Below, piece after piece: positions 29,985-55,509 of a stretch of DNA of 64,000 nt (its first letter is position 1; each line of letters opens with the position of its first letter). The DNA is from Escherichia phage EC.P2: the sequence record PQ631072.1; one strand, given 5' to 3'. Both the position numbers and the translations under genes were made by a program. Under the pieces are notes generated by a model. The model saw nothing but the letters and a program-made list of their open reading frames with translations. It was not told the DNA's origin and did not search any database.

Positions 29985-30254
29985 CTAAAATGATTCGTTT
30001 GTCTCCATAATATATTGCATTTCCAAATCTTCCATATGTTTCTTAAATTGGTAAACAATTTCCGATGGGGAAATATCTATATCAAAAAGTTCTTTTGTAC
30101 CAGAATAGAACCTAATACCATCAACAATAAGGCCACCATAATAATCCCAATCACTTTCTCGTGAGAAAGGATTAGGTTCTTCATAATAGTAATCTACTTC
30201 AACAATAATAGGTTCTTTATTATCTTGTTTATACTCAAAATCAAAAGTGTTCAT
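29985..30254 (-). CDS. hypothetical protein
   Basis: 89 aa acidic ORF; 1-nt overlap with upstream gene. Confidence 0.4.
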   Translation of the reverse strand: MNTFDFEYKQDNKEPIIVEVDYYYEEPNPFSRESDWDYYGGLIVDGIRFYSGTKELFDIDISPSEIVYQFKKHMEDLEMQYIMETNESF

Positions 30255-31198: not shown

Positions 31199-31209
31199 AT
31201 GGCTCCTTG

Positions 31210-32184: not shown

Positions 32185-32857
32185 ATTTTTGAGCCTCCTC
32201 ATAAGAGATAAAAGTTTTACCATTGCGAAGATCCTCCAGTGATTGTTTATATTGTTCCCAGTTTACACCAATCCCCTGTTCTTTCTCTTCTTTTGACAGA
32301 TTTGCAAAAGGTAAAGGATTATCTCCAAACACATCGTCAGGATGGATAAACGCCATAATTCGAATAGGGCATGGTACGCCGTGAATACCTCGGTTCAAAC
32401 CTGCTAGTGGAACACGCTGAATCCACTCTGCATCTTCATATCCATAACCGTGGGTGTATGAGCGGAAATAGCCAGCTTTCTCAATAACTGCACGGGAATA
32501 CATACCAAACTGGCACATACCTAGTTCCCAAATAACCACTTCACCTTCAATACCTTTTACTTTATCTTTAAAATATTCAGGCATACCAAAGAAATCCCAG
32601 CCATTTTCCTTAGCCTGTTTTACAAAATATGTTTCCCAACCTGGCACAACCGGATAGCAATCATCATCAAAAATAAACCAGTAATCATACCCTTCATCAT
32701 AAAACTTTTTCATCAGTTCATTACGGGCATATGCAACACCTTTTCGTTCCCGATCATACTGTACAACAAAAGTAGCATTAGGATCAGTCACAAGATAATC
32801 TTTAAGAGGACGCTTACCTACAGTAATAACACCAACACCAATTTTTGTATTTTCCAA
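32171..32857 (-). CDS. glycosyltransferase (GT-A fold, family 2-like)
   Basis: 228 aa; DxD region YDYWFIFDDDCYP. Confidence 0.5.
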   Translation of the reverse strand: MENTKIGVGVITVGKRPLKDYLVTDPNATFVVQYDRERKGVAYARNELMKKFYDEGYDYWFIFDDDCYPVVPGWETYFVKQAKENGWDFFGMPEYFKDKVKGIEGEVVIWELGMCQFGMYSRAVIEKAGYFRSYTHGYGYEDAEWIQRVPLAGLNRGIHGVPCPIRIMAFIHPDDVFGDNPLPFANLSKEEKEQGIGVNWEQYKQSLEDLRNGKTFISYEEAQKYGKS

Positions 32858-32866
32858 AATAACTCC

Positions 32867-33430
32867 TTAAATAATTTTATTCATGTCTTGACAATGTAAA
32901 AGGTGTGAAACAGCTTTTCTAGGATCATCACTACCTAAACGGTATGTGTGAAATAAATATAGCCCACGTAATAAACCTAGCCTTTTATTGTTAGCGTGTA
33001 ATGCTTTAGAGAAAATTATATCAAACTGTATTGATCTTTCCTCAAAAGGGATTTCATTCCACAGACTCTTACGAAAGAGAAGAAAGAATCCTGCTAAGAT
33101 AGCATCTGTAGGTACTTCCTCTATTGAGTTTCCCCATTCTAGATGTGCTCTTTTTGCAATCTCAATGTGGTGTAATATATTTGGATCTTCACTTCTTTCA
33201 TTATTAAATAATTGATATGTTGATCCCAATCTATTACAAGATGCACCAAGAACATCAAAATCAGGATTTGAACGGACTATTGATTCCAACCAAGCAGGTT
33301 GTTCTGGAAGAAGAAACATTGTATCAATGTCTCTTAGGCAAATCCAACTATCTTCTGGTAAGACACTTATTGTGTCATTGATACCTTTTCCAATATCTCC
33401 AGAAAGATAGGGAGTTATGTGAAATATCAT
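32867..33430 (-). CDS. putative glycosyltransferase (GT-A-like)
   Basis: 187 aa; possible DxD (CLRDIDTMF); weaker than neighbours. Confidence 0.35.
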   Translation of the reverse strand: MIFHITPYLSGDIGKGINDTISVLPEDSWICLRDIDTMFLLPEQPAWLESIVRSNPDFDVLGASCNRLGSTYQLFNNERSEDPNILHHIEIAKRAHLEWGNSIEEVPTDAILAGFFLLFRKSLWNEIPFEERSIQFDIIFSKALHANNKRLGLLRGLYLFHTYRLGSDDPRKAVSHLLHCQDMNKII

Positions 33431-35383: not shown

Positions 35384-35410
35384 TGTTTTCTCCTCTTTTA
35401 TTTCAAATAT

Positions 35411-35426
35411 GCGCCCCGAAGGGCGC
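35411..35426 (-). terminator. hairpin downstream of TerD gene
   Basis: GCGCCCCGAAGGGCGC palindrome between TerD stop and next gene. Confidence 0.45.
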
Positions 35427-35447
35427 TATGATTTATTACTTGATGTA

Positions 35448-36044
35448 TTACTCGAACCAATCGTCGCCAGCGCCAAACGCTTTAACTACATCGTAAATGT
35501 CAAGCCCAGCTTTACCTACACCATATGCTTTCAGTTTCCATTCGCTATCTTCTCGCACCAGGGAGGCAACGTGGCAAATGGTGTTACCTGCAAGTTCTGG
35601 AGCCAAGAAGTCAAAGTCCAGCAGTTCAACATTACGTTCATCATCGAAGATTTTAAGGAAACCTTCGGTAGCGTGACCAAGGCGTTTCTTACCCGTTTCG
35701 TCATCAATAGTAATTACGAATGCAATTTCCTGTGCTTCAGCAGAGATATTATCCAGTGTAACATCAATCTGCTCCATCTGTCCTACACCATCACGAACAT
35801 CTTCACCTGCAAAAGTAGAACGTTCAGGATCAAATTTCTGTGCGTAGCACACCAGGTGACGAGGAGACAACAGTTCCGGCAGACCAGATGCATTGTGTCG
35901 GCAAATCAGAGCACTAACATCCAGATCCAGTTTTTCGTTAGATTTCCAAGAGAATTCCAGACGAATGCGTTTCAGTGCTGGTGCGATCTTTTTCAGAGAA
36001 ACTTTTTCGCTAGAACCTTTTTTCAGGGAAATTTTCTGAGTCAT
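35448..36044 (-). CDS. terD: TerD-domain protein
   Basis: 198 aa; N-terminus MTQKISLKKGSSEKVSLKK and internal ...FAGEDVRDGVGQMEQIDVTLDNI... fit TerD pattern; AAGGAGA RBS. Confidence 0.75.
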   Translation of the reverse strand: MTQKISLKKGSSEKVSLKKIAPALKRIRLEFSWKSNEKLDLDVSALICRHNASGLPELLSPRHLVCYAQKFDPERSTFAGEDVRDGVGQMEQIDVTLDNISAEAQEIAFVITIDDETGKKRLGHATEGFLKIFDDERNVELLDFDFLAPELAGNTICHVASLVREDSEWKLKAYGVGKAGLDIYDVVKAFGAGDDWFE

Positions 36045-36117
36045 AATTTATTATCTCCTTTGTTGTTAATTTACGTTGTCTATTTTACTAATCTTTTCTA
36101 CAAAGTCAAGCGTTTTT

Positions 36118-36912
36118 TTACGCTTTTGCTCCGAATTTTTTAACCCACTCACCAAACTCTTCAGATAACAATTTATCGTAAAGTTCTTCATCAGACAAGG
36201 ACAAATCTGCAATACCGATAAAATCAACATTATCGTACTCTTTTGCCAAGTCTTTCAGGAATTTAAAGTTTGCATTACCTACACCAACCATAAACCAGTA
36301 AACAGGCGTATTGCGGTGTTTGTTCAGTAAGCTACGTACTGCTGAAGTATCCATGTTTTCCCCGTCAGTTTGGAAGAAAATCATTGCAGGAGTACGATCA
36401 ACTTGTGCATCAGTGTCTACAACCTGTTCTACAACAGTACGTGTTACTTCTACAAGTTCTTTTTTACCAGTTAGTTTAGCAAGGAAACCCTTAGCTGGGA
36501 CTTCTTCATACTCAACGACTTCGCGTGTAATATTTTTCATAGGTACACTACCGAAGTATGTATCATAGATCTCCTGCATTACTGGAGCATAAGCAGTACC
36601 ACCATTGATGCAAACATTAGACATGCAAGAGCCGACATAATCATCATACACATCAGCCGTTGCAGGAGGCAGTTCAAAAGAAGAACTATTGAAAGCCCAC
36701 ATGTCAATCTGTGCATTGTCATCAAACTTCATACCAAACGGCAGCAGTTTACCTACAAAATCACTAACAGTGCCATCACGATACAGCTCACACATACTAC
36801 CCGAAATATCTAAGGCGCTACCGACACGAAGAACAACATCGTTAATCTTTTTCTTACGCAGAGATACAGTAAGAGTTTCTTGACGTTTTTTAAGACTGAT
36901 TTTATTGGACAT
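36118..36912 (-). CDS. vWA-domain protein (vWA-TerF-like)
   Basis: 264 aa; MIDAS motif ALDISGSM; N-terminal leader MSNKISLKKRQETLTVSLRKKK mirrors TerD N-terminus. Confidence 0.65.
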   Translation of the reverse strand: MSNKISLKKRQETLTVSLRKKKINDVVLRVGSALDISGSMCELYRDGTVSDFVGKLLPFGMKFDDNAQIDMWAFNSSSFELPPATADVYDDYVGSCMSNVCINGGTAYAPVMQEIYDTYFGSVPMKNITREVVEYEEVPAKGFLAKLTGKKELVEVTRTVVEQVVDTDAQVDRTPAMIFFQTDGENMDTSAVRSLLNKHRNTPVYWFMVGVGNANFKFLKDLAKEYDNVDFIGIADLSLSDEELYDKLLSEEFGEWVKKFGAKA

Positions 36913-37939: not shown

Positions 37940-38172
37940 TACACATTCTCCTCTTTTACCAATTCCATCGTTGAACTATCAAAACCATCTTTAGAAGAAT
38001 AGGTATAGACAGAACGTAGTTCTCGCAGGACAGTAAATACATTAGGATCATCTAACCAAGCATCCTGGAGGAGAACATAACGATCTTCATTGTCATACTG
38101 GACAGCAATCATAGAACCAGACAGTTTGTAAATTTTAATATTCATAATATATTTCTCCTTAAAGTAGACCAC
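37939..38172 (-). CDS. hypothetical small protein
   Basis: 77 aa. Confidence 0.35.
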   Translation of the reverse strand: MVYFKEKYIMNIKIYKLSGSMIAVQYDNEDRYVLLQDAWLDDPNVFTVLRELRSVYTYSSKDGFDSSTMELVKEENV

Positions 38173-39262
38173 GTTTAACAGTTTGAATCATACCATCTTC
38201 AAGAGATTGCACTTCTTGAATGTAATCAATACGAGCAGCACGGGCTTCAGTGTTGATTCGGTTAGTTTCTTCCAACATTTTAACTAAGTTTTCTTGATCG
38301 CGACGTAATGTTTCAATATCCAATACTTGACGATTAGCAAGTTGCGTAGCTTCAATTTGGTTTTGTGCAGCCAGATCACTACCCATTGCAATAGCAGCAT
38401 TAAATTCATTCAGTACATTGTTCTGTGTATCGGCTGCTTTCTTCTGGCGTAGACTTTCAATATACATAGAAAAGTTTGCAGAGTAAGCAGGAATAACATT
38501 ATTCACAATATTACGGGCTGATCGCATCAAACTTGCAGATACTTTCTGCATACTTTGTACACGTGGCCCCATCTGAACACACAGTAAACGCAAGGCTTTC
38601 AGGTCTGCAATACGAATTTCAAGCAGATCCATAGTATCACGAGTACGTTGACGCTCTTCTACTTCATTTTCAGGTAGTGTATTAAGGCGAACTTCTTCTT
38701 TTTCATAAGTAGCTGTTAGAAGCTCTATATCCCTGTTTAAGCTAAGAGCATATTTTGCAATAGCCTCTTCTAAACGTTGCAGATATCGTAAAGAATCTTC
38801 TTCTTTTTTCAAGTCTGTTTGGAGTGTCTTTACCAAACCTTCAATACGATTATTGATGGTGTCAAATTCACCAAACAAATCTTCTTTCATACCTAATACT
38901 TTCTTAACTAGTTTACCTAAGCCTTTAGATTGTTTAATAGAATTAGGATCAAGTTGCTTTGCTTGCTTAATAAGTGCAGTTAAACGCTCACTCATTTCAT
39001 CTCCCTGAGATGAACGCTGGTGTTTAAGCACTTCCGCATTAAGGTTACGAAGAGTAAGTCCTGCATCAGCACCAACCTGTTCAATCTCTTCACGAGACAT
39101 TGGAGGCAGCATTTGTACAGGTCGTGCAACAGCAGGGGCATATACAGGGCTTGCATCCATAGCAGTTGGAGCAAACAAAGACTTACTTTTTTCTGTTGTT
39201 GCCGTGAATACACTCATTTCAGACGGTTTGCTTTTTACGGCACTGATAAAAGGACTGGACAT
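38159..39262 (-). CDS. telA: TelA-like (toxic anion resistance family) protein
   Basis: 367 aa, long helical/coiled-coil protein of TelA size and composition; GGAGGA RBS; sits between TerD/vWA and TerC. Confidence 0.5.
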   Translation of the reverse strand: MSSPFISAVKSKPSEMSVFTATTEKSKSLFAPTAMDASPVYAPAVARPVQMLPPMSREEIEQVGADAGLTLRNLNAEVLKHQRSSQGDEMSERLTALIKQAKQLDPNSIKQSKGLGKLVKKVLGMKEDLFGEFDTINNRIEGLVKTLQTDLKKEEDSLRYLQRLEEAIAKYALSLNRDIELLTATYEKEEVRLNTLPENEVEERQRTRDTMDLLEIRIADLKALRLLCVQMGPRVQSMQKVSASLMRSARNIVNNVIPAYSANFSMYIESLRQKKAADTQNNVLNEFNAAIAMGSDLAAQNQIEATQLANRQVLDIETLRRDQENLVKMLEETNRINTEARAARIDYIQEVQSLEDGMIQTVKRGLL

Positions 39263-39330
39263 TCAATTTCCTCCATATTCTTTAGTAGATGGTGATACCT
39301 CTGTACCACCATCATAACACAAATTAAGTA

Positions 39331-40182
39331 TTAAACAAACATATCTAAATAATTTGTAGTAATAAATGCTCCATCTGCTTCCAGATTAACATAACCAGTA
39401 GCATTAGTGGTTAAGAAATCCAGATCGAAGGACTCTTTAACACCCCGTACCTCAACACGAGAGATATCGAATACAGGTAGTGTAACAGCCTCTTCGTGCA
39501 ATACCGTACCTTTGTAGGTTGCCTTAATGATAAACTTGATATTACCCGTTCCCGCATCATACAAAACACTTTCAAAGCCTTTGAGAGTATACTTATCACC
39601 AGAGGTGAAGTGCAAAGTTGCTTTGTTTACAGTACGTTTTTTACGAGGAGTTCCTTTCACACGTTTATGATCACTACGTTTTTTGTATTTAGGAATGAAT
39701 ACAAACGATACACTCTCAAGAAAAGTATCAACATCAAGGATTTTAATATCCTCTGTTGCAGCAAATTTTGAAGTCGTTGCATCAAAATGCTTTGCTCTGC
39801 GATCATACATAAAGATATCAAACCGATCTTCTAAATCAAACAAATTGTGTATCTTAATTTCAGAATGCTTGCACATTGCAGCAACCTTAAACTCTTCAAA
39901 ACGTGGGTGTTCTACAAGCTCTTCAAGTTTTACACCAAAGACAGTATATTGTTTCGAAGTTTTTTCTGGCGTTGGCATTACAGAAGCATAATCACCGATT
40001 GCGCTTTTAAAGCAAAATTGTTCTTGACCTGTATTTTTACCAACGAATTTACAGTATTCGTCATCGTGCATACTTTCTTTGGTAGTACCAACAAACTCAA
40101 AACCATCTTTATTCTTCTCAAGAATTTCTTGATTAAAGATCCAACCTTCCAGGCGATACACTTTACCAACTTCTAGTTTCAT
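39331..40182 (-). CDS. hypothetical protein
   Basis: 283 aa ORF between TelA-like and lipoprotein genes. Confidence 0.4.
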   Translation of the reverse strand: MKLEVGKVYRLEGWIFNQEILEKNKDGFEFVGTTKESMHDDEYCKFVGKNTGQEQFCFKSAIGDYASVMPTPEKTSKQYTVFGVKLEELVEHPRFEEFKVAAMCKHSEIKIHNLFDLEDRFDIFMYDRRAKHFDATTSKFAATEDIKILDVDTFLESVSFVFIPKYKKRSDHKRVKGTPRKKRTVNKATLHFTSGDKYTLKGFESVLYDAGTGNIKFIIKATYKGTVLHEEAVTLPVFDISRVEVRGVKESFDLDFLTTNATGYVNLEADGAFITTNYLDMFV

Positions 40183-40217
40183 CTGTTTCTCCTTCTTATT
40201 TAATCTGTATTAAATTA

Positions 40218-40808
40218 TTAACGACGACGTGAGCTACTAAAACTACGTTTCGACGAAGAATAACTTTTCGAAGACTTACTATAAGAGCTAATAGGGCTTG
40301 AGTAAGACTTACGAGCAGAGTAATTACTATTCACTTTTGTTGTTGATGGGCGTGAATACGTTTGTACACTTTGCTGCTTAATTGTGTTTTGTTTAGTGGT
40401 TGTATATGTATTCCCTTGTTTATCATAAAAACTATGCTTTTGTGTTGTATATGCTTTACTATTAGTTGTAGGAGCAGCGTTGTTATTGATAATTGTTGTA
40501 TTGCTACCGCCATCTCTATAACCACCACCGCCACTATTACCACTCAACATATGACCAAGAAGCATACCTGTAGCAAATTCACCTACACCAGAAGAACCAC
40601 TGCCGCCTCCTTGCACAACAACTGTTGAAGGTTGTGCAGGTGCTGCTTGAACAACTTGAGGTGCAGGTTGATTTACATATTGTTCATCTACCATCTGATT
40701 TGGTGTTTGTTGGTAACGTTGGTTTTGTACATTTTCAGAATCATCACAACCTACCAGCAATGCACTACCTAATACAACTGCAACAATAAAAGATTTAATG
40801 TTTTTCAT
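40218..40808 (-). CDS. lipoprotein with glycine-zipper segment
   Basis: Track ORF 40218..40823; ATG at 40808 (MKNIKSFIVAVVLGSALLVGC) gives signal peptide with lipobox LVGC; GGGSGSSGVGEFATGMLLGHMLSGNSGGGG; Ser/Tyr/Lys-rich C-terminus ending RRR. Confidence 0.5.
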   Translation of the reverse strand: MKNIKSFIVAVVLGSALLVGCDDSENVQNQRYQQTPNQMVDEQYVNQPAPQVVQAAPAQPSTVVVQGGGSGSSGVGEFATGMLLGHMLSGNSGGGGYRDGGSNTTIINNNAAPTTNSKAYTTQKHSFYDKQGNTYTTTKQNTIKQQSVQTYSRPSTTKVNSNYSARKSYSSPISSYSKSSKSYSSSKRSFSSSRRR

Positions 40809-41001
40809 TTGTAACCCTCTCATTTAAAGTCTCAACACAATTTTTAAAATCTCTAGAGAAACAATACATCTGTTCTCCGTTCCTGTTGATAGTAATTGTA
40901 TGGTTATCAACATATGTTGTCAAGATAAAAATCAAACAAAATAACCCTAAAGCAAAACAAATATTTTCAAACAGAATCCAAAGAACACGTAAAACCACCA
41001 T
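40795..41001 (-). CDS. small hydrophobic protein
   Basis: 68 aa, one TM helix. Confidence 0.3.
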   Translation of the reverse strand: MVVLRVLWILFENICFALGLFCLIFILTTYVDNHTITINRNGEQMYCFSRDFKNCVETLNERVTNEKH

Positions 41002-41015
41002 CAGATCACCTCAAC

Positions 41016-41034
41016 AAAGCCCCCGAAGGGGCTT
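41016..41034 (-). terminator. hairpin terminator after TerC gene
   Basis: AGCCCCCGAAGGGGCT palindrome just below TerC stop. Confidence 0.5.
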
Positions 41035-41040
41035 AATGAA

Positions 41041-42018
41041 TTAAGCAACAGTCTGGTCTTCTTTTTCAGGGAAGATTAAACTTGCAATAACACCCAGCCC
41101 CAGAGTACCTAACACAATATACATACTGATCGTCGGATCAATGTGTGCTGGCAGGAAACTCACTTTTGCGTGCAGAGTTTCTGCAAACGGGTGATACATC
41201 AGTTTTACACCCACAAATACCAGGACTACGATAACTGCTTTCTCCAGATGAACCAAATATTTCAGTGCAACACTAAGGACAAAGAACAGAGCACGTAGAC
41301 CTAAAATTGCACACAGCATTGAAGAAAATACAAGCAGAGGTTCTTGTGTCACTGCAATTACTGCTGGAACAGAGTCTACTGCAAAGATTACGTCAACCAT
41401 TTCCATTACAAACACACAAACCAATGCAGGAGTTGCTACACGAACACCATTTTTGATTGTGAAGAACTTCTCACCATCCATCTGATCAGATACAGGGAAC
41501 AGCTTACGAACAATGCGAGTAGCCCAGTGTTTAGAGTAATCAACTTCTGCGTCATTATCTCCAGCGAATACCATTTTAGCTGCGCAGAAAAGGATGACCG
41601 CACCGAAGAAGATATTAACATACCAGCCCAAACTCAACAAGTAAGTACCTACTGCTACAAACACACCTCGGAAGACAATCGCACCTGCAATACCCCAAAG
41701 TAGAATCTTGTGCTGCAAGTGTGTGCTTTTAATACCAAAACTTGCGAATACTGCCACAAATACTACTAAGTTATCTACAGAAAGAGATTTCTCCAACACA
41801 TACCCACTCAAGAACAAGCTCGCAAAATCAGCACCGTGTTGGAAGTATACAAAACCATAGTAGGCTAATGATACCCCAATCCAGAAAATTGACCAGCCAA
41901 TTGCAGATTTAAATGAAATTTCTTTGTTTTCTCTGTGTCCAAAGAAATCAATACAAATCGACAAGACTAAAATACCCACTAAAACAACCACATCAATAAT
42001 TGGGAAACCCAGTTGCAT
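41041..42018 (-). CDS. terC: TerC-family integral membrane protein
   Basis: 325 aa, multiple TM helices, conserved acidic/Asn motifs (LSVDNLVVF; AVDSVPAVIAVTQEP); GAGGAG RBS. Confidence 0.7.
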   Translation of the reverse strand: MQLGFPIIDVVVLVGILVLSICIDFFGHRENKEISFKSAIGWSIFWIGVSLAYYGFVYFQHGADFASLFLSGYVLEKSLSVDNLVVFVAVFASFGIKSTHLQHKILLWGIAGAIVFRGVFVAVGTYLLSLGWYVNIFFGAVILFCAAKMVFAGDNDAEVDYSKHWATRIVRKLFPVSDQMDGEKFFTIKNGVRVATPALVCVFVMEMVDVIFAVDSVPAVIAVTQEPLLVFSSMLCAILGLRALFFVLSVALKYLVHLEKAVIVVLVFVGVKLMYHPFAETLHAKVSFLPAHIDPTISMYIVLGTLGLGVIASLIFPEKEDQTVA

Positions 42019-42036
42019 TCTTTTCTCCTCTTTAAT

Positions 42037-42055
42037 GCGGAGGACAATCCTCCGC
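42037..42055 (-). promoter_or_regulatory. GC hairpin immediately upstream of TerC RBS
   Basis: GCGGAGG-ACAAT-CCTCCGC; on minus strand lies between upstream gene stop and TerC Shine-Dalgarno, no T-tract. Confidence 0.3.
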
Positions 42056-42095
42056 TCTATGTCGTATACTATAAACTGTTTTTAAAGAAAGTCAA

Positions 42096-42344
42096 CTAGT
42101 TCAGTTCTGTAATTTTAAGTTTATCTTCTTTGTTAATGATAGGGAAAGCTACAGCATCACCTACATCATCAATAAAGCAAACAGCAAGACCACCTTCCAC
42201 TTTGCTAACCTGACCATTAAAGGCGTGATACGGGGCAGGAACAATATCTCCATCTTCAAGGAGAATAGCCTCATAAACCTTACCAACAGTACAATCACGA
42301 GTGTTTATAAATTTTTCAAGCACTTCAACATTTACTTTACGCAT
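42096..42344 (-). CDS. hypothetical small protein
   Basis: 82 aa. Confidence 0.4.
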   Translation of the reverse strand: MRKVNVEVLEKFINTRDCTVGKVYEAILLEDGDIVPAPYHAFNGQVSKVEGGLAVCFIDDVGDAVAFPIINKEDKLKITELN

Positions 42345-42358
42345 ATAAAGATCCTCTC

Positions 42359-42565
42359 TTATTTGTTAGATTGAAAGATACCACGAAGTACCGCAAGAAT
42401 GAACGTCACACAGACTACACTCCAAAACGTTACAGGAACATGATGCCAGTCTAAGCCGATAATGTCAATCATATAGTTGTATGCTAAAAGCAGTAGCCAA
42501 CTAGGGATTAACACAATCAAGAACACAACAATAAAACAACCTAATACTGCTAAAACACCTGCCAT
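42359..42565 (-). CDS. small membrane protein
   Basis: 68 aa, two TM helices. Confidence 0.4.
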   Translation of the reverse strand: MAGVLAVLGCFIVVFLIVLIPSWLLLLAYNYMIDIIGLDWHHVPVTFWSVVCVTFILAVLRGIFQSNK

Positions 42566-42574
42566 ACTTTCTCC

Positions 42575-43291
42575 TTATTTCAGTTTGTAAACAATTACAT
42601 TTAAACCTTTGTTCACTAGAGTTTCTTCGATCATAAGTTTTACAATATTCCAAGAACCTCCAGCCAAACCACAACCAAGCATTGGTAAACCTACAATTTT
42701 ACCGCCTGAAGATACAACATCGTCTCCCATACTATCTAACGCATTGTAGATAGCTTCATAATTCAGGTCACGCTTACCTTCCTCACGACGACTATAACCA
42801 TATTGTCCATATAAATTATAAATTGTCAAATTGTTTTCTGTATACTTAGTAAACGTACCTAATTTTTTATAATCACCACGTTTAGTGGCACAATCTGCTT
42901 TAAACGCACCAGGCCACTTGCTTTTAATTTTTGGTGCAATACCACTACCCATAGTGCAAAAACAGTTACAGCAGTGTGCTATAGCGTCTATATCGCCTCT
43001 CTCTGCTGCTGCTAAAAGATCACCGTATACCTCAATGATACCTGGTGGATAACTTGTTACAATCTCATCTTCCCAGTACATTTGCTCTACACCACCGATC
43101 AGTGCAAAGTTTTGTGTGATGCGATCATCAATATAATTAAGACCTGAAACATACACAGCATATTCATCCTGTGCTGTAATGCCTTGTACACGAATTCTTA
43201 AGACACCATCTTTATCTGTTGCTACACGCCCAAAATCTTTTTCTGTAATATTGGTGATAGGATCTCCGAAAGTCGTCACTTTATTAGACAT
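42575..43291 (-). CDS. macro-domain protein (TARG1/OARD1/DarG-like ADP-ribose hydrolase fold) with N-terminal extra domain
   Basis: Track start is TTG at 43408 inside PRTase gene; ATG at 43291 (MSNKVTTFG) overlaps PRTase stop by 8 nt. C-terminal half AHCCNCFCTMGSGIAPKIKSKWP ... LPMLGCGLAGGSWNIVKLMIEETL ... VIVYKL parallels TARG1 (AHCISEDCRMGAGIA ... [24 protein letters not shown] ... ITVYTL). Confidence 0.7.
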   Translation of the reverse strand: MSNKVTTFGDPITNITEKDFGRVATDKDGVLRIRVQGITAQDEYAVYVSGLNYIDDRITQNFALIGGVEQMYWEDEIVTSYPPGIIEVYGDLLAAAERGDIDAIAHCCNCFCTMGSGIAPKIKSKWPGAFKADCATKRGDYKKLGTFTKYTENNLTIYNLYGQYGYSRREEGKRDLNYEAIYNALDSMGDDVVSSGGKIVGLPMLGCGLAGGSWNIVKLMIEETLVNKGLNVIVYKLK

Positions 43292-44141
43292 AATAATCCC
43301 CTTTAACATTAGATTTGTTGATAATGTTGCTTTCAAAAAATTGACGCAGGAAATCAAAGTTCTCTTTGTATTTTTCAATATTATTGTAACCTTCTGCAAG
43401 GCAACCAAAGAACAGTTGTTCTACATAATACAAAGGAAGTTGTGAAAGTGCAATTTTAAAATCAACTTCGCTTTGACTCATTAGATACTTAATAGGACGA
43501 ACCAAACATTTAGCATCAGTTTCTTGCTTAATCATTTTAATAAAAGCTGCCAGGTTATTGATATAGTTGAAGTTAAGTGCAGCTTCGGTGTTGGCTTCTG
43601 TACCTTCATACTTTGCAAAGTACAGGAAAAACGTATCGTTTTCAACACCTTCTTTGTCTAAAATTTCAATAAGTTTTTCTTCGTGTGTTCCTGTAATATT
43701 AACATCATCAATGAAAATCAGAGTTTTATTACCCCAGAAATCACGATTGATAGAGAAAGTGTCACCATCGATCAAAGCCTTACGATCTTCTTTGCTAAGA
43801 AATCCATAATCATTGATATAACTCACTTTACGATGAACGATATCCCACTCTACTGCTTTACCTCCTTTGATAGAGATTAGGTAGTTGAGGTGATCTACAA
43901 AATGTTCAGATAACACTGTAGCTGCATTTTTCACATAGTTATATGGAGATGGAATAACAACAAAACTTTCATTTACTAGTCGTTCTTCATATTTAGAAAA
44001 GAAACTTTCAGCTAGAATGCGTCCCATTCTTTTTGCTGCCTGGTTACTACCAAACTTTAGTTTGGAATAATCTGCAATGTTAAATTTTGCTTCCTTCAGG
44101 TTAGTAAAAGTATTAGCAAAATGTTGAATTTGATTACGCAT
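43284..44141 (-). CDS. phosphoribosyltransferase (type I PRTase fold)
   Basis: 285 aa; PRPP-binding motif TLIFIDDVNITGTHEE; ATG with AGAGGA RBS; stop/start overlaps with both neighbours. Confidence 0.65.
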   Translation of the reverse strand: MRNQIQHFANTFTNLKEAKFNIADYSKLKFGSNQAAKRMGRILAESFFSKYEERLVNESFVVIPSPYNYVKNAATVLSEHFVDHLNYLISIKGGKAVEWDIVHRKVSYINDYGFLSKEDRKALIDGDTFSINRDFWGNKTLIFIDDVNITGTHEEKLIEILDKEGVENDTFFLYFAKYEGTEANTEAALNFNYINNLAAFIKMIKQETDAKCLVRPIKYLMSQSEVDFKIALSQLPLYYVEQLFFGCLAEGYNNIEKYKENFDFLRQFFESNIINKSNVKGDYYV

Positions 44142-44790
44142 TAATAAGTTCCTCTTTTTTAAGTTTAGCCAACAAGTCTTCTGGATTAATAATATGACAG
44201 AACTTCATCCCTATGTCAACAGCTTTTCCATCATAAATCAAACTATCTCCAACGTGTAAAATCTCCTCTGGTGCGAGATCAAACGTTACCATTTCATCAA
44301 AAGAGAGTTTAAAAAACCTAGGATCTGGTTTACACAAGCAAAACTCATCAGAAAAATGCATAAAGTCAAATGGTAATTTTGTTAAGCCAGAATATACAGC
44401 TAAGAAACTACCTGGTACAAAATTAGTATTGCTCTTAATACTCAAAGAATAGGTTGAACTTAGCTCTTCCAACTTCTTGCAAAGCTCAGGGTTCAATATT
44501 GGAGGATGTTTTATAAACATTGCTAAACAGTCTCTTTTTAACCCATCTACTTTATCAAGATCAATGTTCAAACGAGCAGAGAGTGTTTCCCAAGCATTCC
44601 TAGACGTTCCACAAATGCCTTTTTCTGCTTTTAAATCCAGGAGAGTTTTTACCTCTTTATATACGGTAGCTGCTTCTGCTTCAGAACAAGAGGCATACTC
44701 GGCAATAACCTTGTTGCGTTCTTCTGCATACAAAGGATTAGCAGTAATAAGAGTATTCCATACATCAAAAGAAATATGCTTAACAGTCAT
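44134..44790 (-). CDS. HAD-superfamily phosphatase
   Basis: Track start TTG at 44808; ATG at 44790 with GGAGGA RBS gives MTVKHISFDVWNTL (HAD motif I DxxxT); later HVGDSLIYDGKA (motif IV-like). Confidence 0.6.
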   Translation of the reverse strand: MTVKHISFDVWNTLITANPLYAEERNKVIAEYASCSEAEAATVYKEVKTLLDLKAEKGICGTSRNAWETLSARLNIDLDKVDGLKRDCLAMFIKHPPILNPELCKKLEELSSTYSLSIKSNTNFVPGSFLAVYSGLTKLPFDFMHFSDEFCLCKPDPRFFKLSFDEMVTFDLAPEEILHVGDSLIYDGKAVDIGMKFCHIINPEDLLAKLKKEELINA

Positions 44791-44792
44791 TT

Positions 44793-44948
44793 TTAATCCT
44801 CCGTCCAAAAGAATATCATCTGCTTAATTTTATTGATCTCTTGATGTAGTAACTTTCCAGCATGTGATTGATCTTTAATATTGACAGCAAGAATTTCAAG
44901 CTCCGTTAGTTTTTCCTGGATAGCTTTATATTCATCATCTGTAAGCAT
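44793..44948 (-). CDS. hypothetical small protein (below ORF-track cutoff)
   Basis: 51-codon ORF found by hand (MLTDDEYKAIQEKLTELEIL...); weak RBS; stop overlaps HAD RBS. Confidence 0.3.
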   Translation of the reverse strand: MLTDDEYKAIQEKLTELEILAVNIKDQSHAGKLLHQEINKIKQMIFFWTED

Positions 44949-44959
44949 TTTCTTCCCCT

Positions 44960-45163
44960 TTAGAATGGTAATCTTTGTATGTCACTTAGCCCCACACCCA
45001 GAAGTCTAGCAATATCCTTATCTAAAAGCAACTCTTTTTGTTCTAAAATGTTAATCAAATCTCCTAATACTTCTTTAATGTCACGATCATTTTTAGCAAC
45101 GTGACCACCTGCGGTATCAACTTTATCTTTAAAAACAAAATAATGATCCATAATACCCTCCAT
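44960..45163 (-). CDS. hypothetical small protein
   Basis: 67 aa ORF after terminator hairpin. Confidence 0.4.
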   Translation of the reverse strand: MEGIMDHYFVFKDKVDTAGGHVAKNDRDIKEVLGDLINILEQKELLLDKDIARLLGVGLSDIQRLPF

Positions 45164-45170
45164 ATAAATA

Positions 45171-45192
45171 AAGGAGGCTTTCGCCTCCTTTT
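45171..45192 (-). terminator. rho-independent terminator after AAA+ ATPase gene
   Basis: AAAGGAGGCTTTCGCCTCCTTTT; T-run on minus strand. Confidence 0.6.
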
Positions 45193-45197
45193 ATCAC

Positions 45198-46358
45198 TTA
45201 GTAAGAACGACCACCAAACACATACTCTGTGTAGTTTTTACGTTCTTTGTTTTTAATAACAACTTCAATGTTGTTACCTTTATCATCGGTGAACATAAAG
45301 TGATAACCGTCACCACCCATTGTACGAATGTGTTTTTCATCATACGTTAGCAAGATACGGTCTACACCCCAGTAGTAGTCACCTTCTTCATCTTTATCTT
45401 CCACAGTAACGATCCCTTCCATTTCAGGAAGATGCTCTTCTCCTGACTTATGATCTACAGCTACAACATAACGATTACCGCTAAACAAACCTTGTGCTGT
45501 CATACCGTCAATATCGGTATCTGACGAAACATCTCCTGTACGATCTACACCGTTAACTTTCAGAAGTTTAACTTCTTTTGCAGCATAGCGGTGTTCAGTA
45601 ATACTGATACCCATTAATGCAAGTGCATCAGAGAATTTGTCATTAGGGTAACGGTTAAGTTCTTCTACTAATGACTGAACAATATCAAAGTTCAAGTCCA
45701 CGGAAAGATTATAAAGCGTTTCAAAATCTGGCAAGAAGGCTTTGTTCTCCAGATTTTTAGCCAGATAATCATCCATAGTAGCTTTAGGTAGTTTCTTATA
45801 GCTAAAACTGTAGAAAATACGGCTAGGACGATTACGCAAAAATTCTGATACATAACCATCATTTTTAGTCAATACAAACAGCTTGTCATAACCACCAACA
45901 CCATCCAGCAGGGTAAGCAAACCATCTTGTGCATCTTTTTCAGCATACAGTTTATCAAATTCATCGATCATAATCATCACAGGTTGTGTGATTTTAGACA
46001 TAAAATTGATAAAGCCTTCACCATTAAAAGCACTACCGATAGAAATAGTAGGAATACCCATTTCACGAAGAGCAGAAGACAGCATTTTAGCTTGCAAAGT
46101 TTTACCGCTACCTTTCGTACCCTCAAGGAGAACACCTGTGTTTTTACCTTTGCGGCTAAGGAACGTCTTGATAATACGTTCTGATTTATCATCAGTATCA
46201 CCGTATGTTACTGAAGGGACTTCCATATCATTTTTAGGATACAGGAAGAACTCACCACTTTGAGTAACACCTACACCAAAAGTTCCTGCTGGGATTTCTT
46301 CAATATCTGTACCAGATTTCTGACGCAGGAAGATTTGATTGCCGAATACTGTAAACAT
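45198..46358 (-). CDS. AAA+/P-loop ATPase (paralogue A)
   Basis: 386 aa; Walker A GTKGSGKT, Walker B IMIDEFDK; clear paralogue of 61376..62503. Confidence 0.65.
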   Translation of the reverse strand: MFTVFGNQIFLRQKSGTDIEEIPAGTFGVGVTQSGEFFLYPKNDMEVPSVTYGDTDDKSERIIKTFLSRKGKNTGVLLEGTKGSGKTLQAKMLSSALREMGIPTISIGSAFNGEGFINFMSKITQPVMIMIDEFDKLYAEKDAQDGLLTLLDGVGGYDKLFVLTKNDGYVSEFLRNRPSRIFYSFSYKKLPKATMDDYLAKNLENKAFLPDFETLYNLSVDLNFDIVQSLVEELNRYPNDKFSDALALMGISITEHRYAAKEVKLLKVNGVDRTGDVSSDTDIDGMTAQGLFSGNRYVVAVDHKSGEEHLPEMEGIVTVEDKDEEGDYYWGVDRILLTYDEKHIRTMGGDGYHFMFTDDKGNNIEVVIKNKERKNYTEYVFGGRSY

Positions 46359-46378
46359 AGTTTTCTCCTCTATTTAAT

Positions 46379-46849
46379 TTAGTCAGATTCCCAAATGTTG
46401 TCTTTCTTAACCCACATTCGTTGATTATCTGAACCTCTATAACGTTTCGTTGTTGGTTGATTCATATCATACTTACCATCTATCACTATGTCAACCAGTT
46501 TTTTAATTTTCTCTGGAATTTCTTCAAAAAGATATCCTGTATATAAGACAATATCTTTTTTGTTTCCAAAACAATCTCTTACCTTCTCAAGAACATACTC
46601 TACAGTGTCAATGTTCTCTTTGTCAAGAGGTTCACCACCTAAAACTGTTAATCCTTTAATGAAAGGTCGAGATAAATCTTCCAAGATAAGATCTAATGTT
46701 TCAGTAGTGAACTCTTGTCCGTAGTTATACGACCAGGCTTTCTGGTTAAAGCAGCCACGGCAACCGTGGCTACAACCGCTCACCCACAAAGAGCATCTTA
46801 CACCGTCACCGTTGAGCATGTCAACAGGTTCATATCCGGCGTAATTCAA
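46379..46849 (-). CDS. nrdG: anaerobic ribonucleotide reductase activating protein NrdG
   Basis: 156 aa; N-terminus MNYAGYEPVDMLNGDGVRCSLWVSGCSHGCRGCFN closely parallels E. coli NrdG; TTG start overlapping NrdD stop (TTGA) with AGGGAGA RBS. Confidence 0.85.
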   Translation of the reverse strand: MNYAGYEPVDMLNGDGVRCSLWVSGCSHGCRGCFNQKAWSYNYGQEFTTETLDLILEDLSRPFIKGLTVLGGEPLDKENIDTVEYVLEKVRDCFGNKKDIVLYTGYLFEEIPEKIKKLVDIVIDGKYDMNQPTTKRYRGSDNQRMWVKKDNIWESD

Positions 46850-50980: not shown

Positions 50981-53755
50981 TTAGTTTACCAGTTTATTTA
51001 TATCTGGTAAAAGATTTATTTCACCTAAGAAATCACCTTCACCTTCCTCTAGCCAACTCTCATATGCTTGTGCATGATTATAGTTACCATCAAAAGAATC
51101 TGCAACAAATTTTTCTACAGTTTTTCGAGATGTACCAGCACCAAATACACCAAGTTTAATACTATTGATCGGTAAAGTAGGGCTTGTGGGTACTTTCTCT
51201 GTTGCAACACGGTTGATATCTATAATCTCCTGTACGGTTGTGTTCCATTGTAAGCATTTAACACAACGGGTATGCGCTACATACAGTAGGTTTCGCTCTG
51301 CCTCTTCTAGTCCTACCCATTCACCAGTCTTTTTATCATAGTTGGAAGGAAAATCATTAGCAACAATAACCTGATCCCACTCCAAACCTTTAGACTTGTG
51401 TGCTGTAGTCAGTGTGACTTTTGCTGTAGGAGAGTTTCTATGCGTTCTAAGTGTATGTGCTATAGTATTTGCCTTACCAGAAACTACAATGTTTAACAAG
51501 CGTTTAGCATCTGGATCAGCCTCTGCACACTCAACAAATTCATTCCAGTCTGCGTAAGGTAATACAGTTTCATGTTTTACTTTCTCAATATCTCCTCTCC
51601 GAAGAGCATTAACACTATCTACCATAGAGATAAAATCCCTGGTATCTACGTTAATAATAATTTCTTCCCCATCTGCAATACGATCCATTGCCTCCATAAG
51701 CAAGGTTAAATTCTTGCGAAAGATGATAGTGTAAGGTTTTGTATAGTCTACAACATCTGATTTGTAGCTACCTACTACAGTATCAAAGCCTTTACCAACC
51801 AAAGGATGACGCAAAGGTTCTTTATCACTTAAAATCATATTCGCAATGTTTGCCACTTTGGGGCCAAAACGGAAGCAAGCAGTTAATGGAAGCTCTGCCC
51901 CATACTTAGCTGTTTCAATCATCATATTAGAGCTACCTCTAAATTGATAAATGCAGTTGTGGCTAAGAATTTCATTACCAAAGAAGTTAGCAGTATCCTC
52001 TACTTCGATATCATAATAGATACCCTCACTATCTACAATGTCCACAATTTCTTCTGCCGTTACAGTATCACCATCTTTTACCAATACAGACATGCCTTTA
52101 AACAAACCCGCTGCCGGAATTAAATTATATTTGGCGGTGTTCACAGAGGACATGCATTCTTTTAAAGATGCAAACGGAACTATTTCAAGGATCTTTTGTG
52201 CAAAACTCAATGCTTCACGATAAGAGTTGAAATATTTACGTACACGGTAACGACCTTCCAATTTAGCAACACTCACGCTTACACCTGCTTCAATGAGTGA
52301 AGCATAGATTGGCATTTCACTTTCTGTCCACTCAAAGCTAACTTGTGTTCCTTTACAACTTTGTGCTCGCAAAGTCACTGTTAACATTTTTCTTTCATCT
52401 ACTGCACAATTGATGCTGTGCCAGTGTGGATAAGCAAAATGATAATCTTTATCCTCTAAAAGTTTAAAACCATTTTGTCCGAATTGTTCAAAGATGTTGT
52501 TGATTCTTTCTTGATTAATACCGCGTGAACTTGCCTCAAATACACAAGTAGGAATGCCATATTGTAAACTGTATGCCATTTCTTTTTCCATAGCAGCTTC
52601 ACGGTTTTCAACAATATCCAACACCCATAACTTCTGTGCTTTTTCAGAACGTGTACGTTGCCCCAGTTTAGAAAAACCTTCTTTATCATCGAATTTGTTA
52701 GTGATCCCTACTCGGAAGCCTAAATCTTTTCTCCACATTAGGTATACCACCATCTGATCATCTTTCAGAACATAAGGTGAAGCCCAAATACGATGGTTAT
52801 GTGTCATATCTAAAGTCTTACCTTTAGCAGTAATAACATTCCTACCTTTTGTACGTGTAGATAAAGTCTTATTTGTTACTTTTCTAAATGTAACTTTACC
52901 GTTAGAATAAGACTCTACCTTATCACCTATTTGCAGGTCTTTCATTGTAACCTGACCATTTTCGGTATTAAGTACCGTGTTTTCTGACACACATTGGAAT
53001 TCATCACCAACTACCACAATTTGTTTTGCAGATTTAGCATTCCGCAGAATAGACAAGAATGCAGGGTTAACATCCTGGAATTCATCCCCAAAGATAATGT
53101 CATAACCAAGATCAGCACCTGATAACTCAAACAATTTTACATAGGTGTCGTGCGTCATCAAAGTATCTGTGTTAGGGTCAATGCGCTCTCGCCACAATTG
53201 TTTTGCATACTTAACTACTTCTGTAATTAGTTTGTGTTCGTTAATACCTTTTCTTTTAATATCTGCAAGATGTACACCAGGAAAATGTTTACGGCTGATA
53301 AAAGGATCATCCGAAAATTCAAACTTACCTACGGTTTGCTTGATCATTAAACCAATCATAGCACGAGTTAAAAGTGTTTTCCCTCGTTTATCAATAAGAT
53401 TATTAATCTTAAATTTCTTTGCTATCTCACTACCTGTACCTGCAACGTTAACATACTGTCCTTCTGGTCGTGACAGTTTTGCACGTAAACGATGATCCAG
53501 GAATTGATAGCAAATGGAATGCAATGTACGGCATTCTACATTTGGTGGCATCTTACGCCGTGCTTCTTCTGCCATGCTTTTATTGAAAGCTAAGTAAAGA
53601 ATGCGATCTTCTGTACTGTTAGCCAGCAAATAAAGTGTTGACGTTTTTCCTGATCCAGATTTAGCTTGGATAGTTAAAAACCGATGATCTGGAAAAGCCT
53701 CCTTAATAGCTGTTTGCTCTTCTGTTGGAGTAAAACTCAACTCTTTCTTAGCCAT
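50981..53755 (-). CDS. superfamily 1 DNA helicase (UvrD/PcrA-like) interrupted by an intein
   Basis: Walker A TIQAKSGSGKTSTL, motif II DEFQD, motif III split as VVVGDEFQ / CIYQFRGS around a 346-aa insert; ATG at 53755 (MAKKELSF, AGAGAGG RBS) preferred over track TTG 53794. Confidence 0.75.
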   Translation of the reverse strand: MAKKELSFTPTEEQTAIKEAFPDHRFLTIQAKSGSGKTSTLYLLANSTEDRILYLAFNKSMAEEARRKMPPNVECRTLHSICYQFLDHRLRAKLSRPEGQYVNVAGTGSEIAKKFKINNLIDKRGKTLLTRAMIGLMIKQTVGKFEFSDDPFISRKHFPGVHLADIKRKGINEHKLITEVVKYAKQLWRERIDPNTDTLMTHDTYVKLFELSGADLGYDIIFGDEFQDVNPAFLSILRNAKSAKQIVVVGDEFQCVSENTVLNTENGQVTMKDLQIGDKVESYSNGKVTFRKVTNKTLSTRTKGRNVITAKGKTLDMTHNHRIWASPYVLKDDQMVVYLMWRKDLGFRVGITNKFDDKEGFSKLGQRTRSEKAQKLWVLDIVENREAAMEKEMAYSLQYGIPTCVFEASSRGINQERINNIFEQFGQNGFKLLEDKDYHFAYPHWHSINCAVDERKMLTVTLRAQSCKGTQVSFEWTESEMPIYASLIEAGVSVSVAKLEGRYRVRKYFNSYREALSFAQKILEIVPFASLKECMSSVNTAKYNLIPAAGLFKGMSVLVKDGDTVTAEEIVDIVDSEGIYYDIEVEDTANFFGNEILSHNCIYQFRGSSNMMIETAKYGAELPLTACFRFGPKVANIANMILSDKEPLRHPLVGKGFDTVVGSYKSDVVDYTKPYTIIFRKNLTLLMEAMDRIADGEEIIINVDTRDFISMVDSVNALRRGDIEKVKHETVLPYADWNEFVECAEADPDAKRLLNIVVSGKANTIAHTLRTHRNSPTAKVTLTTAHKSKGLEWDQVIVANDFPSNYDKKTGEWVGLEEAERNLLYVAHTRCVKCLQWNTTVQEIIDINRVATEKVPTSPTLPINSIKLGVFGAGTSRKTVEKFVADSFDGNYNHAQAYESWLEEGEGDFLGEINLLPDINKLVN
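51956..52993 (-). mobile_element. intein within helicase motif III
   Basis: Insert begins with Cys (CVSENTVLNTENG...), ends ...GNEILSHN, followed by Cys+1 (CIYQFRGS); 346 aa, large enough to include a homing endonuclease domain (not identified). Confidence 0.7.
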
Positions 53756-54779: not shown

Positions 54780-55145
54780 TTAAACGTTTTCTAAATCTTT
54801 TAAGGCATTACCCAACGTTAGAACAATAACATCGTTTGCTGCCTCTTCCCCATTGATATTGGTGAAATTTGGTGTGACAAAAGTAACCATATAAAACTCG
54901 TCCACCTGGAAGACAGCAATAACACCGTCCATCTTAACATCTTGACGAAAGGAAAAACCAATCATCTTCTCTTGCAAAGGCATATCCCCTTCCTTCATTA
55001 CTGCCAGGGAGTTTTCAGGAATGTTATATTTATCTGCTCCGATGTAGATGTACGTAATGTTATCTTTATCGTGATGATACAGGGTTGCTTTTTCCATATC
55101 TAAACCTGACAGATCAAATACGTTAATTTCTTGTGTAGTCTTCAT
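54780..55145 (-). CDS. hypothetical protein
   Basis: Track start TTG 55220; ATG at 55145 with GGGAGGA RBS preferred. Confidence 0.4.
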   Translation of the reverse strand: MKTTQEINVFDLSGLDMEKATLYHHDKDNITYIYIGADKYNIPENSLAVMKEGDMPLQEKMIGFSFRQDVKMDGVIAVFQVDEFYMVTFVTPNFTNINGEEAANDVIVLTLGNALKDLENV

Positions 55146-55509
55146 AAATATCCTCCCAAATCCAATAATCATCTGTGTAAGTAGGATGCCTTTTATCCCA
55201 CTCTGTTCTAGCCCAAGCAACCGCTGCTACCAACACATCACCATGACAAGGTTGAGGTGAGCAGAAGCAAACTAAGTCTTTCCCTTCTAATTCTAACAAA
55301 TCTTCAAGAGTGATTTTACCACAACGAATTTGTTCCCACAACCACTCTTTATATCTTTGTATAGTTGATCCTCGTGGTTCATCATCCTTTAACTTAAAAG
55401 GATTTGCAAACTTTGAGGCTTTTAACCCCATATGAGGCATAGCTCTGCCAATGTACACTGCACCTTCAGGTATTACTTTACCTAAATGGTAGAAATTTAA
55501 TACTTTCAT
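55123..55509 (-). CDS. DUF4326-like protein
   Basis: Motifs VYIGRAMPHMGLKASKFANPF ... LVCFCSPQPCHGDVL; ATG at 55509 preferred over track TTG 55533 (removes overlap). Confidence 0.5.
   Translation of the reverse strand: MKVLNFYHLGKVIPEGAVYIGRAMPHMGLKASKFANPFKLKDDEPRGSTIQRYKEWLWEQIRCGKITLEDLLELEGKDLVCFCSPQPCHGDVLVAAVAWARTEWDKRHPTYTDDYWIWEDIYEDYTRN

Follow-up and report, generated by a model that had tools for sequence, protein, structure and literature searches.

Gene content of the locus

Three adjacent genes on the minus strand of Escherichia phage EC.P2 (PQ631072.1), encoding a haloacid dehalogenase (HAD)-fold enzyme, a phosphoribosyltransferase (PRTase) and a macrodomain protein, were analyzed within a 64,000-nucleotide stretch of this record, referred to here as the window. 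The HAD-IA-fold hydrolase (44134-44790, 218 residues) corresponds to Phi92_gp187 and bas62_0070, the ComF-like type I PRTase of the PRTase_3 family (43284-44141, 285 residues) to Phi92_gp186 and bas62_0069, and the macro protein (42575-43291, 238 residues) to Phi92_gp185 and bas62_0068. All three annotations are already public, the labels given in BASEL phage Bas62 being 'putative HAD-like superfamily protein', 'putative phosphoribosyltransferase' and 'putative macrodomain protein'. Phi92-like E. coli myophages (Stephanstirmvirinae, Justusliebigvirus) match the region with 99% identity; of the 89 phage records found, 53 covered at least 80% of the 8.4-kb query. More than 50 phi92-like phage genomes carry all three genes, with identities of 95-100%, so these are not chance open reading frames (ORFs). 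What is new here is evidence that the trio is composite.

The sequence agrees with a preliminary description of this DNA in the position and strand of the three genes and in an 8-nt overlap at both junctions. The end of the HAD gene (AAT GCG TAA) contains the PRTase ATG within the overlap ATGCGTAA (44134-44141), and the end of the PRTase gene (TAT GTC TAA) contains the macro ATG within the overlap ATGTCTAA (43284-43291). A Shine-Dalgarno-like GGAGG, GAGG or GGGGA lies ahead of each of the three starts. The start of the macro gene is ambiguous: the BASEL annotation of Bas62 takes the upstream ATG at 43309, which gives a 26-nt overlap, and the ATG at 43291 has the better ribosome-binding site. 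The further argument of that description, that the overlaps speak for coupled expression, did not hold or was overstated. Overlaps of 8 nt are typical of the genome (of 55 consecutive junctions between genes annotated in the related phage Paula, 16 are overlaps, and three of these measure 8 nt), and the PRTase-macro junction varies among close relatives. Because overlapping junctions are ordinary in such a genome, the overlaps alone do not single out the trio.

The macrodomain protein

The macro protein matched PF01661 (E 2.4e-7; 31.1 bits against a cut-off of 22). Its closest sequence matches in the PDB were 5e3b (SCO6735) and 2fg1 and 2afc (BT1257) at about 5e-15, followed by TARG1 (4e-10) and DarG (1e-3), and the top structural matches found by Foldseek were TARG1 (template modelling (TM) score 0.91, E 7e-13), BT1257, DarG (Thermus aquaticus, TM 0.80) and SCO6735. 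The macrodomain proper (42575-43039, residues 85-238) falls in the ALC1/TARG1-like class and the SCO6735/BT1257/Tk.4 subtype, with Gln163 in the catalytic position. The preliminary description had called the domain strikingly close to TARG1 and DarG, which is borne out for the fold but not for the catalytic residues. In the HMMER alignment Gln163 stands opposite TARG1 Lys84 and Ala210 opposite TARG1 Asp125, and the catalytic Lys80 of DarG is likewise replaced by Gln. The TARG1/DarG lysine is therefore missing, but the SCO6735-type set is present: His24, Asn27, Gln85, Gly126 and Gly128 of SCO6735 aligned with H106, N109, Q163, G206 and G208. Among 73 macro homologues N109, Q163, G206 and G212 were invariant and H106, G208 and G211 nearly so. 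Membership of the DarG family was rejected, given the absent catalytic lysine and a match of the NCBIfam DarG model to the macro part only (E 5e-13; 48.9 bits against a cut-off of 250), and Pfam scans of the surrounding ORFs found no darT gene among the neighbors.

SCO6735 removes thymidine-linked ADP-ribose from single-stranded DNA and rescues E. coli from DarT, and its Q85A substitution abolishes activity (PMC9411070). The window protein is 30% identical to the T2 orthologue of Tk.4 (BLASTP, E 1e-17), which is likewise of the Gln type, and relatives of its macro part were found by tblastn in 2,907 phage records, including tk.4-labeled genes in RB49 and PhiW-14. In T4, tk.4 (renamed adfM, anti-DarT factor Macrodomain) is required specifically on hosts carrying DarTG2 (bioRxiv 10.1101/2025.11.20.689424). 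A macrodomain is carried by about 40% of medium-sized phages (PMC9503650), and DarG-like counter-defense proteins are reported for ICP1 and the chimalliviruses. The homology to T4 Tk.4/AdfM and SCO6735 thus supports the anti-defense role suggested earlier for the macrodomain.

Ahead of the macrodomain lies an N-terminal domain of about 84 residues (43040-43291), predicted to be beta-rich. It was found only in 53 phi92-like records and in Citrobacter phage Tr1, where it lies within a separate 142-residue gene between the PRTase and macro genes; the 238-residue protein is for this reason regarded as a lineage-specific fusion. The domain had no Pfam match and its PHROGs were uninformative, and a fold assignment was dropped because the predicted local distance difference test (pLDDT) score of the AlphaFold2 model, 45-74, was too low. 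A further new element is the macrodomain itself, which has the Gln-type active site and is joined to a novel domain.

About 12 kb from the macrodomain, 55126-55509 (minus strand) encodes a 128-residue DUF4326 protein (PF14216, E 1.4e-21). DUF4326 proteins are rhodanese-phosphatase-like, have been proposed to process terminal phosphates on ADP-ribose derivatives and frequently have Macro, NADAR or SLOG domains as fusion partners (Iyer et al. 2022); this one may represent a second ADP-ribose-related gene. In one metagenomic phage (comparison locus L015, 15148-16825) a macro gene stands beside an Acb3-family gene, directed against the cyclic oligonucleotide-based antiphage signaling system (CBASS), and an HNH gene; these surroundings fit an anti-defense neighborhood for the macrodomain.

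The PRTase and the HAD-fold enzyme

The PRTase matched PF15610 (PRTase_3) over 251 of 264 profile positions (E 1e-41; 143.5 bits against a cut-off of 28.7) and contains the phosphoribosyl pyrophosphate (PRPP) motif LIFIDDVNITGTHEE. The PRPP loop, LIFIDDVNITGTH, consists of a hydrophobic strand, an acidic pair and then T-G-T; in 78 homologues D145, D146, T150 and G151 were invariant and T152 nearly invariant. No solved structure was detectable by the PRTase sequence. An AlphaFold model built with the 78 homologues (pLDDT 92.4) is ComFC-like: it shows the alpha/beta fold of type I PRTases, to which a helical extension is added at the C-terminus (approximately residues 185-280). The preliminary identification of a type I PRTase with a PRPP motif is accordingly upheld by the family match, the invariant loop residues and the confident model, and no sign of a non-PRTase fold emerged. 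The model describes a type I, ComF-like PRTase with an intact PRPP loop, for which the transfer reaction is predicted.

The HAD protein scored 25.9 bits against PF00702 (Hydrolase), slightly below the cut-off of 26.4, and matched PHROG 14393 ('hydrolase') at 1e-119. Its best PDB match was 2om6, the uncharacterized PH0253 of P. horikoshii (E 5e-9), with which it has the motif FDVWNTL in common, and NCBIfam gave weak, sub-threshold matches to HAD-IA subfamilies, the dehalogenase type among them. The signature of the fold is present in the motif I aspartate D9, motif II S120, motif III K154 and motif IV D182 and D187. In HAD phosphatases and mutases, the aspartate two positions after that of motif I (Asp+2, as in DxDxT) is the general acid/base. 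Here motif I is non-canonical (D9-V-W11-N-T13): in 11 PRTase-linked HAD homologues it reads D-V-W-(N/K)-T, with D9, W11, T13, S120, K154, D182 and D187 invariant. The preliminary designation 'HAD phosphatase (DxxxT)' therefore stands as regards the fold, but the label 'phosphatase' must be considered unproven because the place of the general acid Asp+2 is always taken by Trp. This non-canonical active site of the HAD partner, conserved, to judge from the alignments, wherever the cassette occurs, is likewise new. No paper mentioning PF15610/PRTase_3 or characterizing a phage HAD-PRTase pair was found in the literature search.

A salvage pathway for nicotinamide adenine dinucleotide (NAD) of the NARP kind was considered and rejected, the PRTase being type I and ComF-like and the neighboring ORFs scanned by Pfam including neither an Adps nor a nicotinamide mononucleotide adenylyltransferase (NMNAT) partner. 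No tie to NAD-depleting immunity, which the preliminary description had raised, was found; the enzyme is not of the Nampt/Namat type. One Rhizobium phage encodes a 'cytidyltransferase' close to the pair; it was rejected as an NMNAT link because Pfam identifies it as a NUDIX protein.

Gene order in relatives and in unrelated phages

The gene order was compared at 11 loci outside the Stephanstirmvirinae, comprising Rhizobium, Caulobacter and Xanthomonas phages, seven metagenomic phage contigs and the rhizobial plasmid pRL10. The HAD gene preceded the PRTase gene in all 11, mostly overlapping or abutting it, with one pair split by an inserted gene. The two were found in nearly the same number of phage records (HAD 155, PRTase 156) with the same taxon spectrum. 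The macrodomain was adjacent to the pair in none of the 11; in a single locus (L015) a macro gene lay about 6 kb away, beside the Acb3-like gene. On pRL10 the HAD-PRTase cassette stands alone.

Across the Stephanstirmvirinae the macro gene comes after the pair, and the PRTase-macro junction is variable. In phAPEC8 a 13-nt gap precedes a short macro protein of 157 residues, in contig L010 the gap is 1 nt, in Klebsiella phage FKP3 (L009, 4358-5011) an HNH gene lies between the two genes, and in Citrobacter phage Tr1 the 142-residue gene and a 60-residue ORF do so. Hence the proposal of a single HAD-PRTase-macro pathway is not supported: everywhere outside the subfamily the pair occurs without an adjacent macrodomain.

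Several observations were made on the surroundings of the pair. One record annotates as 'MazG-like' the gene that lies upstream of HAD in FKP3 and phAPEC8; the idea of an anti-defense island flanked by MazG/Atd1 was dropped, the gene being without Pfam support and without a homologue in the window. In the metagenomic phage L017 (6958-7866) a 302-residue gene with a faint DUF4379 match and a 60-residue ORF separate HAD from PRTase. A recurrent neighbor is a large DUF2828/DUF7788 protein, which adjoins the pair in the metagenomic phage loci L006 (7967-9562) and L016 (5152-6555), where RNA ligase genes, and in L006 also a gene for a CCA-adding enzyme, lie nearby; in Xanthomonas phage XaC1 (L005, 6941-8527) a 528-residue gene occupies the position of the DUF2828/DUF7788 protein.

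Association with Ter genes

Downstream of the trio on the minus strand, interspersed with genes of unassigned function, lie genes for TerC (41041-42018, Pfam E 1e-38), TelA (38159-39262, E 5e-34), vWA-TerF (36118-36912, E 1e-38) and TerD (35448-36044, E 5e-28). The idea of a 'nucleoside-like metabolite' made by a Ter-associated PRTase and HAD module was reportedly put forward by Anantharaman, Iyer and Aravind in 2012, and their bacterial ter biosynthetic cluster is said to include an ATP-grasp enzyme, a TIM-barrel lyase and further PRTases. Pfam found no ATP-grasp, TIM-barrel lyase or second PRTase among the ORFs at 21.8-34.7, 34.8-50.7 and 53.8-59.8 kb of the window. Aravind's group has predicted that the Ter-linked PRTase-HAD pair makes a nucleoside or nucleotide derivative (PMC7824862, PMC5512222), and the link of the two genes to Ter genes has already been described for phages (Iyer et al. 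2021, PMC7824862). The earlier statement that PRTase and HAD lie beside Ter genes was confirmed by Pfam, and this arrangement recurs in three of the 11 outside loci, the independent metagenomic phages L007, L015 and L017, with Ter genes within 6-8 kb of the pair. TerD was found in 143 phage records, in largely the same taxa as the pair. The Rhizobium phages (10-11 records) carried the pair and gave no TerD match. Equivalence with the PRTases of enterobacterial ter plasmids was rejected, as a tblastn search of plasmids with the PRTase matched no enterobacterial ter plasmid and only 17 rhizobial or Hymenobacter plasmids.

A 244-residue ORF on the plus strand (35409-36143) runs antisense to the TerD gene and covers all of it; it is without annotation support and is almost certainly a shadow ORF.

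Probable transcription unit and other features of the window

The trio lies in a tightly packed block on the minus strand, which also holds two small ORFs upstream of HAD (44793-44948, 51 residues; 44960-45163, 67 residues) that are annotated in relatives and belong to PHROGs with no assigned function. Between this block and the AAA-ATPase gene is a terminator-like hairpin (45170-45191, minus strand) with a 9-bp stem containing 5 G-C pairs and a T-rich tail behind it; the annotation of Paula also has terminators at this position, and the hairpin is likely the upstream boundary of the transcription unit. Two further small minus-strand ORFs lie between macro and TerC (42359-42565, 68 residues; 42096-42344, 82 residues). 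Neither had a Pfam match, and the hydrophobic 68-residue product is probably a membrane protein. Directly upstream of TerC is a sigma-70-like promoter match, TTGACT-16-TATAGT (42068-42095, minus strand), and a promoter is annotated at the equivalent position in phAPEC8; the promoter scan as a whole gave 14 hits with 12.5 expected from shuffled sequences and hence no enrichment. Given the terminator-like hairpin and the promoter-like site before TerC, the transcription unit likely comprises seven small genes and not three.

Elsewhere in the window, the genes lie on the plus strand from 1 to 21.8 kb, on the minus strand from 21.8 to 59.8 kb and mostly on the plus strand afterwards, and the GC skew changes sign at approximately 21.8 kb and 59.8-60 kb, roughly where gene orientation switches. 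A UvrD/Rep helicase ORF (50981-53755, minus strand) has 924 residues; its counterpart in Bas62 has the same length and an intein-containing annotation, that in Paula has only 578 residues, and the window thus appears to carry the intein-bearing allele. An N6/N4 DNA methyltransferase gene (22195-22926, minus strand; PF01555, E 7e-30) probably serves anti-restriction. Four putative glycosyltransferase genes in a row (30254-33430, minus strand) adjoin a primase/helicase gene; one has a weak match to the TET-associated glycosyltransferase family PF20691 (23.3 bits, below the cut-off), two are annotated 'putative disaccharide synthase' in BASEL, and the encoded enzymes could decorate either DNA or a surface glycan. 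Four GenBank records labeled 'Campylobacter phage' (MG065639, MG065645, MG065656 and MG065689; host given as C. jejuni, length about 146 kb) match 38000-46400 of the window with 98.5% DNA identity, their PRTase is 100% identical, and their host label looks doubtful.

Interpretation

The account favored here, with modest confidence, is that an AdfM-like anti-DarT2 de-ADP-ribosylase lies next to an autonomous HAD-PRTase cassette, the two being neighbors only in one phage subfamily. The first unit, a macro protein of the Tk.4/AdfM-SCO6735 type with a TARG1-like fold, would be an ADP-ribosyl glycohydrolase that removes DarT2-type ADP-ribose from thymidines of single-stranded phage DNA, a counter-defense step by which replication would be restored. 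Q163 is predicted to take the part of Gln85 of SCO6735 in positioning the distal ribose, and in phi92-like phages this macrodomain is fused to the 84-residue domain that is encoded separately in one relative. The second unit would be a self-contained two-gene cassette of many unrelated phages and of rhizobial plasmids, found often, though not always, among phage Ter genes. Its ComF-like PRTase is predicted to move phosphoribose from PRPP to some nucleophile, and the HAD-fold enzyme would then act on the PRTase product or on the phosphate of that product, in line with the 'nucleoside-like metabolite' idea of Anantharaman et al. 2012. The sequence comparisons establish the domain identities, the active-site residues and where gene order is or is not conserved; the substrates, DarT2 as the target and any cassette product are predictions. 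The domain annotations were public, phage Ter systems with PRTase and HAD had been described, and the function of the macro family has been shown genetically in T4.

Several points weigh against this account. The macro gene adjoins the pair across the whole Stephanstirmvirinae subfamily, and the phi92 lineage has evolved both overlapping frames and a fusion, which could reflect functional coupling and not mere neighborhood. The macro protein is only about 30% identical to T2 Tk.4, and T4 Tk.4 is the sole tested member of the family; the class also acts on ADP-ribose linked to protein Glu/Asp and on other substrates, and the DNA-thymidine target is not proven. The step in which the HAD enzyme would dephosphorylate the PRTase product is weak, the Asp+2 general acid being missing. 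In addition, the PRTase may not make a small molecule at all, because its structural relative ComFC binds single-stranded DNA and is not known to yield a transferase product (PMC9005727).

In the preliminary description the trio was read as a single pathway, coupled at translation, for making or breaking down a ribose-phosphate or ADP-ribose conjugate, for instance to counter NAD-depleting or ADP-ribosylating immunity. This is improbable in our estimation. The trio does form an uninterrupted, overlapping set in more than 50 phi92-like genomes, the macro gene stays by the pair throughout its subfamily, ribose-phosphate moieties are the subject of all three chemistries, and a DUF4326 protein with a proposed role in ADP-ribose phosphate processing is encoded in the window. 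These observations are set against the 11 of 11 outside loci, the rhizobial plasmid included, that are without an adjacent macrodomain, the roughly 2,900 phage genomes in which the macrodomain family occurs without the pair, the interruption of the PRTase-macro junction in relatives by an HNH gene or extra ORFs, and the frequency of overlaps in the genome; moreover, the PRTase resembles ComF and not the Nampt-type NAD enzymes, whose Adps or NMNAT partners were missing among the scanned neighbors. Comparably little credence is given to a broader scheme in which the HAD(DxWxT)-PRTase_3 cassette would be a widespread but so far unrecognized counter-defense or exclusion pair of phages and plasmids, making or consuming a phosphoribosyl conjugate, possibly, in view of the ComFC-like fold of the model, one carried on nucleic acid, and in which the N-terminal domain would have served phi92-like phages to couple it physically to a DNA de-ADP-ribosylase, so that three enzymes together would handle ribosyl lesions or signals.

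A different role for either unit alone deserves somewhat more weight. The macrodomain might act on a substrate other than DarT-modified DNA and serve host take-over or a different counter-defense; candidate substrates are protein-linked mono-ADP-ribose, O-acetyl-ADP-ribose, ADP-ribose-1''-phosphate from RNA repair and ADP-ribose-derived immune signals. SCO6735 and TARG1 also hydrolyze ADP-ribose linked to protein Glu/Asp (PMC9411070), many viral macrodomains have been argued to target soluble ADP-ribose derivatives (Iyer et al. 2022, PMC9503650), public annotations call the macro protein a 'phosphatase', and the fused N-terminal domain could redirect specificity. We nevertheless consider this unlikely, since the sole genetic evidence for the phage macro family, that for T4 Tk.4/AdfM, points to DarTG2, and the closest characterized Gln-type enzyme, SCO6735, is most active on thymidine-ADP-ribose in DNA. 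SCO6735 is also inactive on 2'-OH ADP-ribosylated RNA (PMC11833690), and the results of the same paper show no activity on 5'-phosphate-linked ADP-ribose in RNA or DNA, although its discussion says otherwise. As for the pair, it could be the signal-making arm of a phage-borne Ter system, as Iyer et al. 2021 (PMC7824862) suggested for phages, with the macrodomain unrelated to it. TerD, a TerB-like protein or vWA-TerF would sense the product, whose effect, exerted at the membrane by way of TerC and TelA, would be to exclude superinfecting phages or protect the infected cell. The position of the pair beside or inside Ter clusters in the window and in L007, L015 and L017, and the 143 phage records with TerD in largely the same taxa, make this a possible explanation, if a rather doubtful one: Ter genes are missing from the 6-8 kb around the pair at eight of the 11 outside loci, the Rhizobium phages carry the pair without a TerD match, the cassette stands alone on the rhizobial plasmid, enterobacterial ter plasmids gave no tblastn match to the PRTase, and the ATP-grasp, TIM-barrel lyase and second PRTase are absent among the scanned neighbors.

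If the favored account of the macrodomain is true, an anti-DarTG2 factor comes ready-made in phi92-like phages, which are part of therapy-oriented collections such as BASEL, and the AdfM family would extend beyond the T-even phages and include members with a fused extra domain. The more valuable lead is the HAD-PRTase_3 cassette, which is strictly paired and occurs on rhizobial plasmids as well as in about 155 sequenced phages belonging to unrelated lineages; its product, once identified, would test the 2012 prediction of a 'nucleoside-like metabolite' for Ter systems.

Comparison with known systems

With the NARP1 and NARP2 systems the window has in common a phage-encoded, PRPP-related transferase chemistry predicted to be used against immunity. 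The NARP enzymes, however, have been described as Nampt-like nicotinamide transferases with Adps or NMNAT partners (bioRxiv 10.1101/2024.02.11.579819; PMC9503650), whereas the window PRTase is type I and ComF-like. Its structural counterpart, Helicobacter pylori ComFC (PDB 7p0h), is 12% identical over 148 aligned residues and functions with ComFA in DNA uptake; the phage enzyme differs in its distinct C-terminal helical domain and its obligate HAD neighbor. Like the Ter metabolite module, the window combines PRTase_3 (PF15610) and HAD in adjacency to TerC, TelA, vWA-TerF and TerD, but the pair is also found on its own on a plasmid and in loci that have no Ter genes.

The macrodomain shares its fold and its ADP-ribose-binding loops with TARG1/OARD1 and with the macrodomain of DarG, whose C-terminal DarT-binding domain and DarT partner are absent here. 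SCO6735 and BT1257 have in common with it the H-x-x-N motif, the Gln in place of Lys and the sequence G-C-G-L-A-G-G; they are cellular, single-domain proteins about 30% identical to the window protein, and the mobile loop of SCO6735 is longer. T4 Tk.4/AdfM is, like the window protein, a phage-encoded TARG1/DarG-like macrodomain with Gln at the catalytic position, from which the window protein is distinguished by the extra 84-residue N-terminal domain and by the adjacent HAD-PRTase pair.

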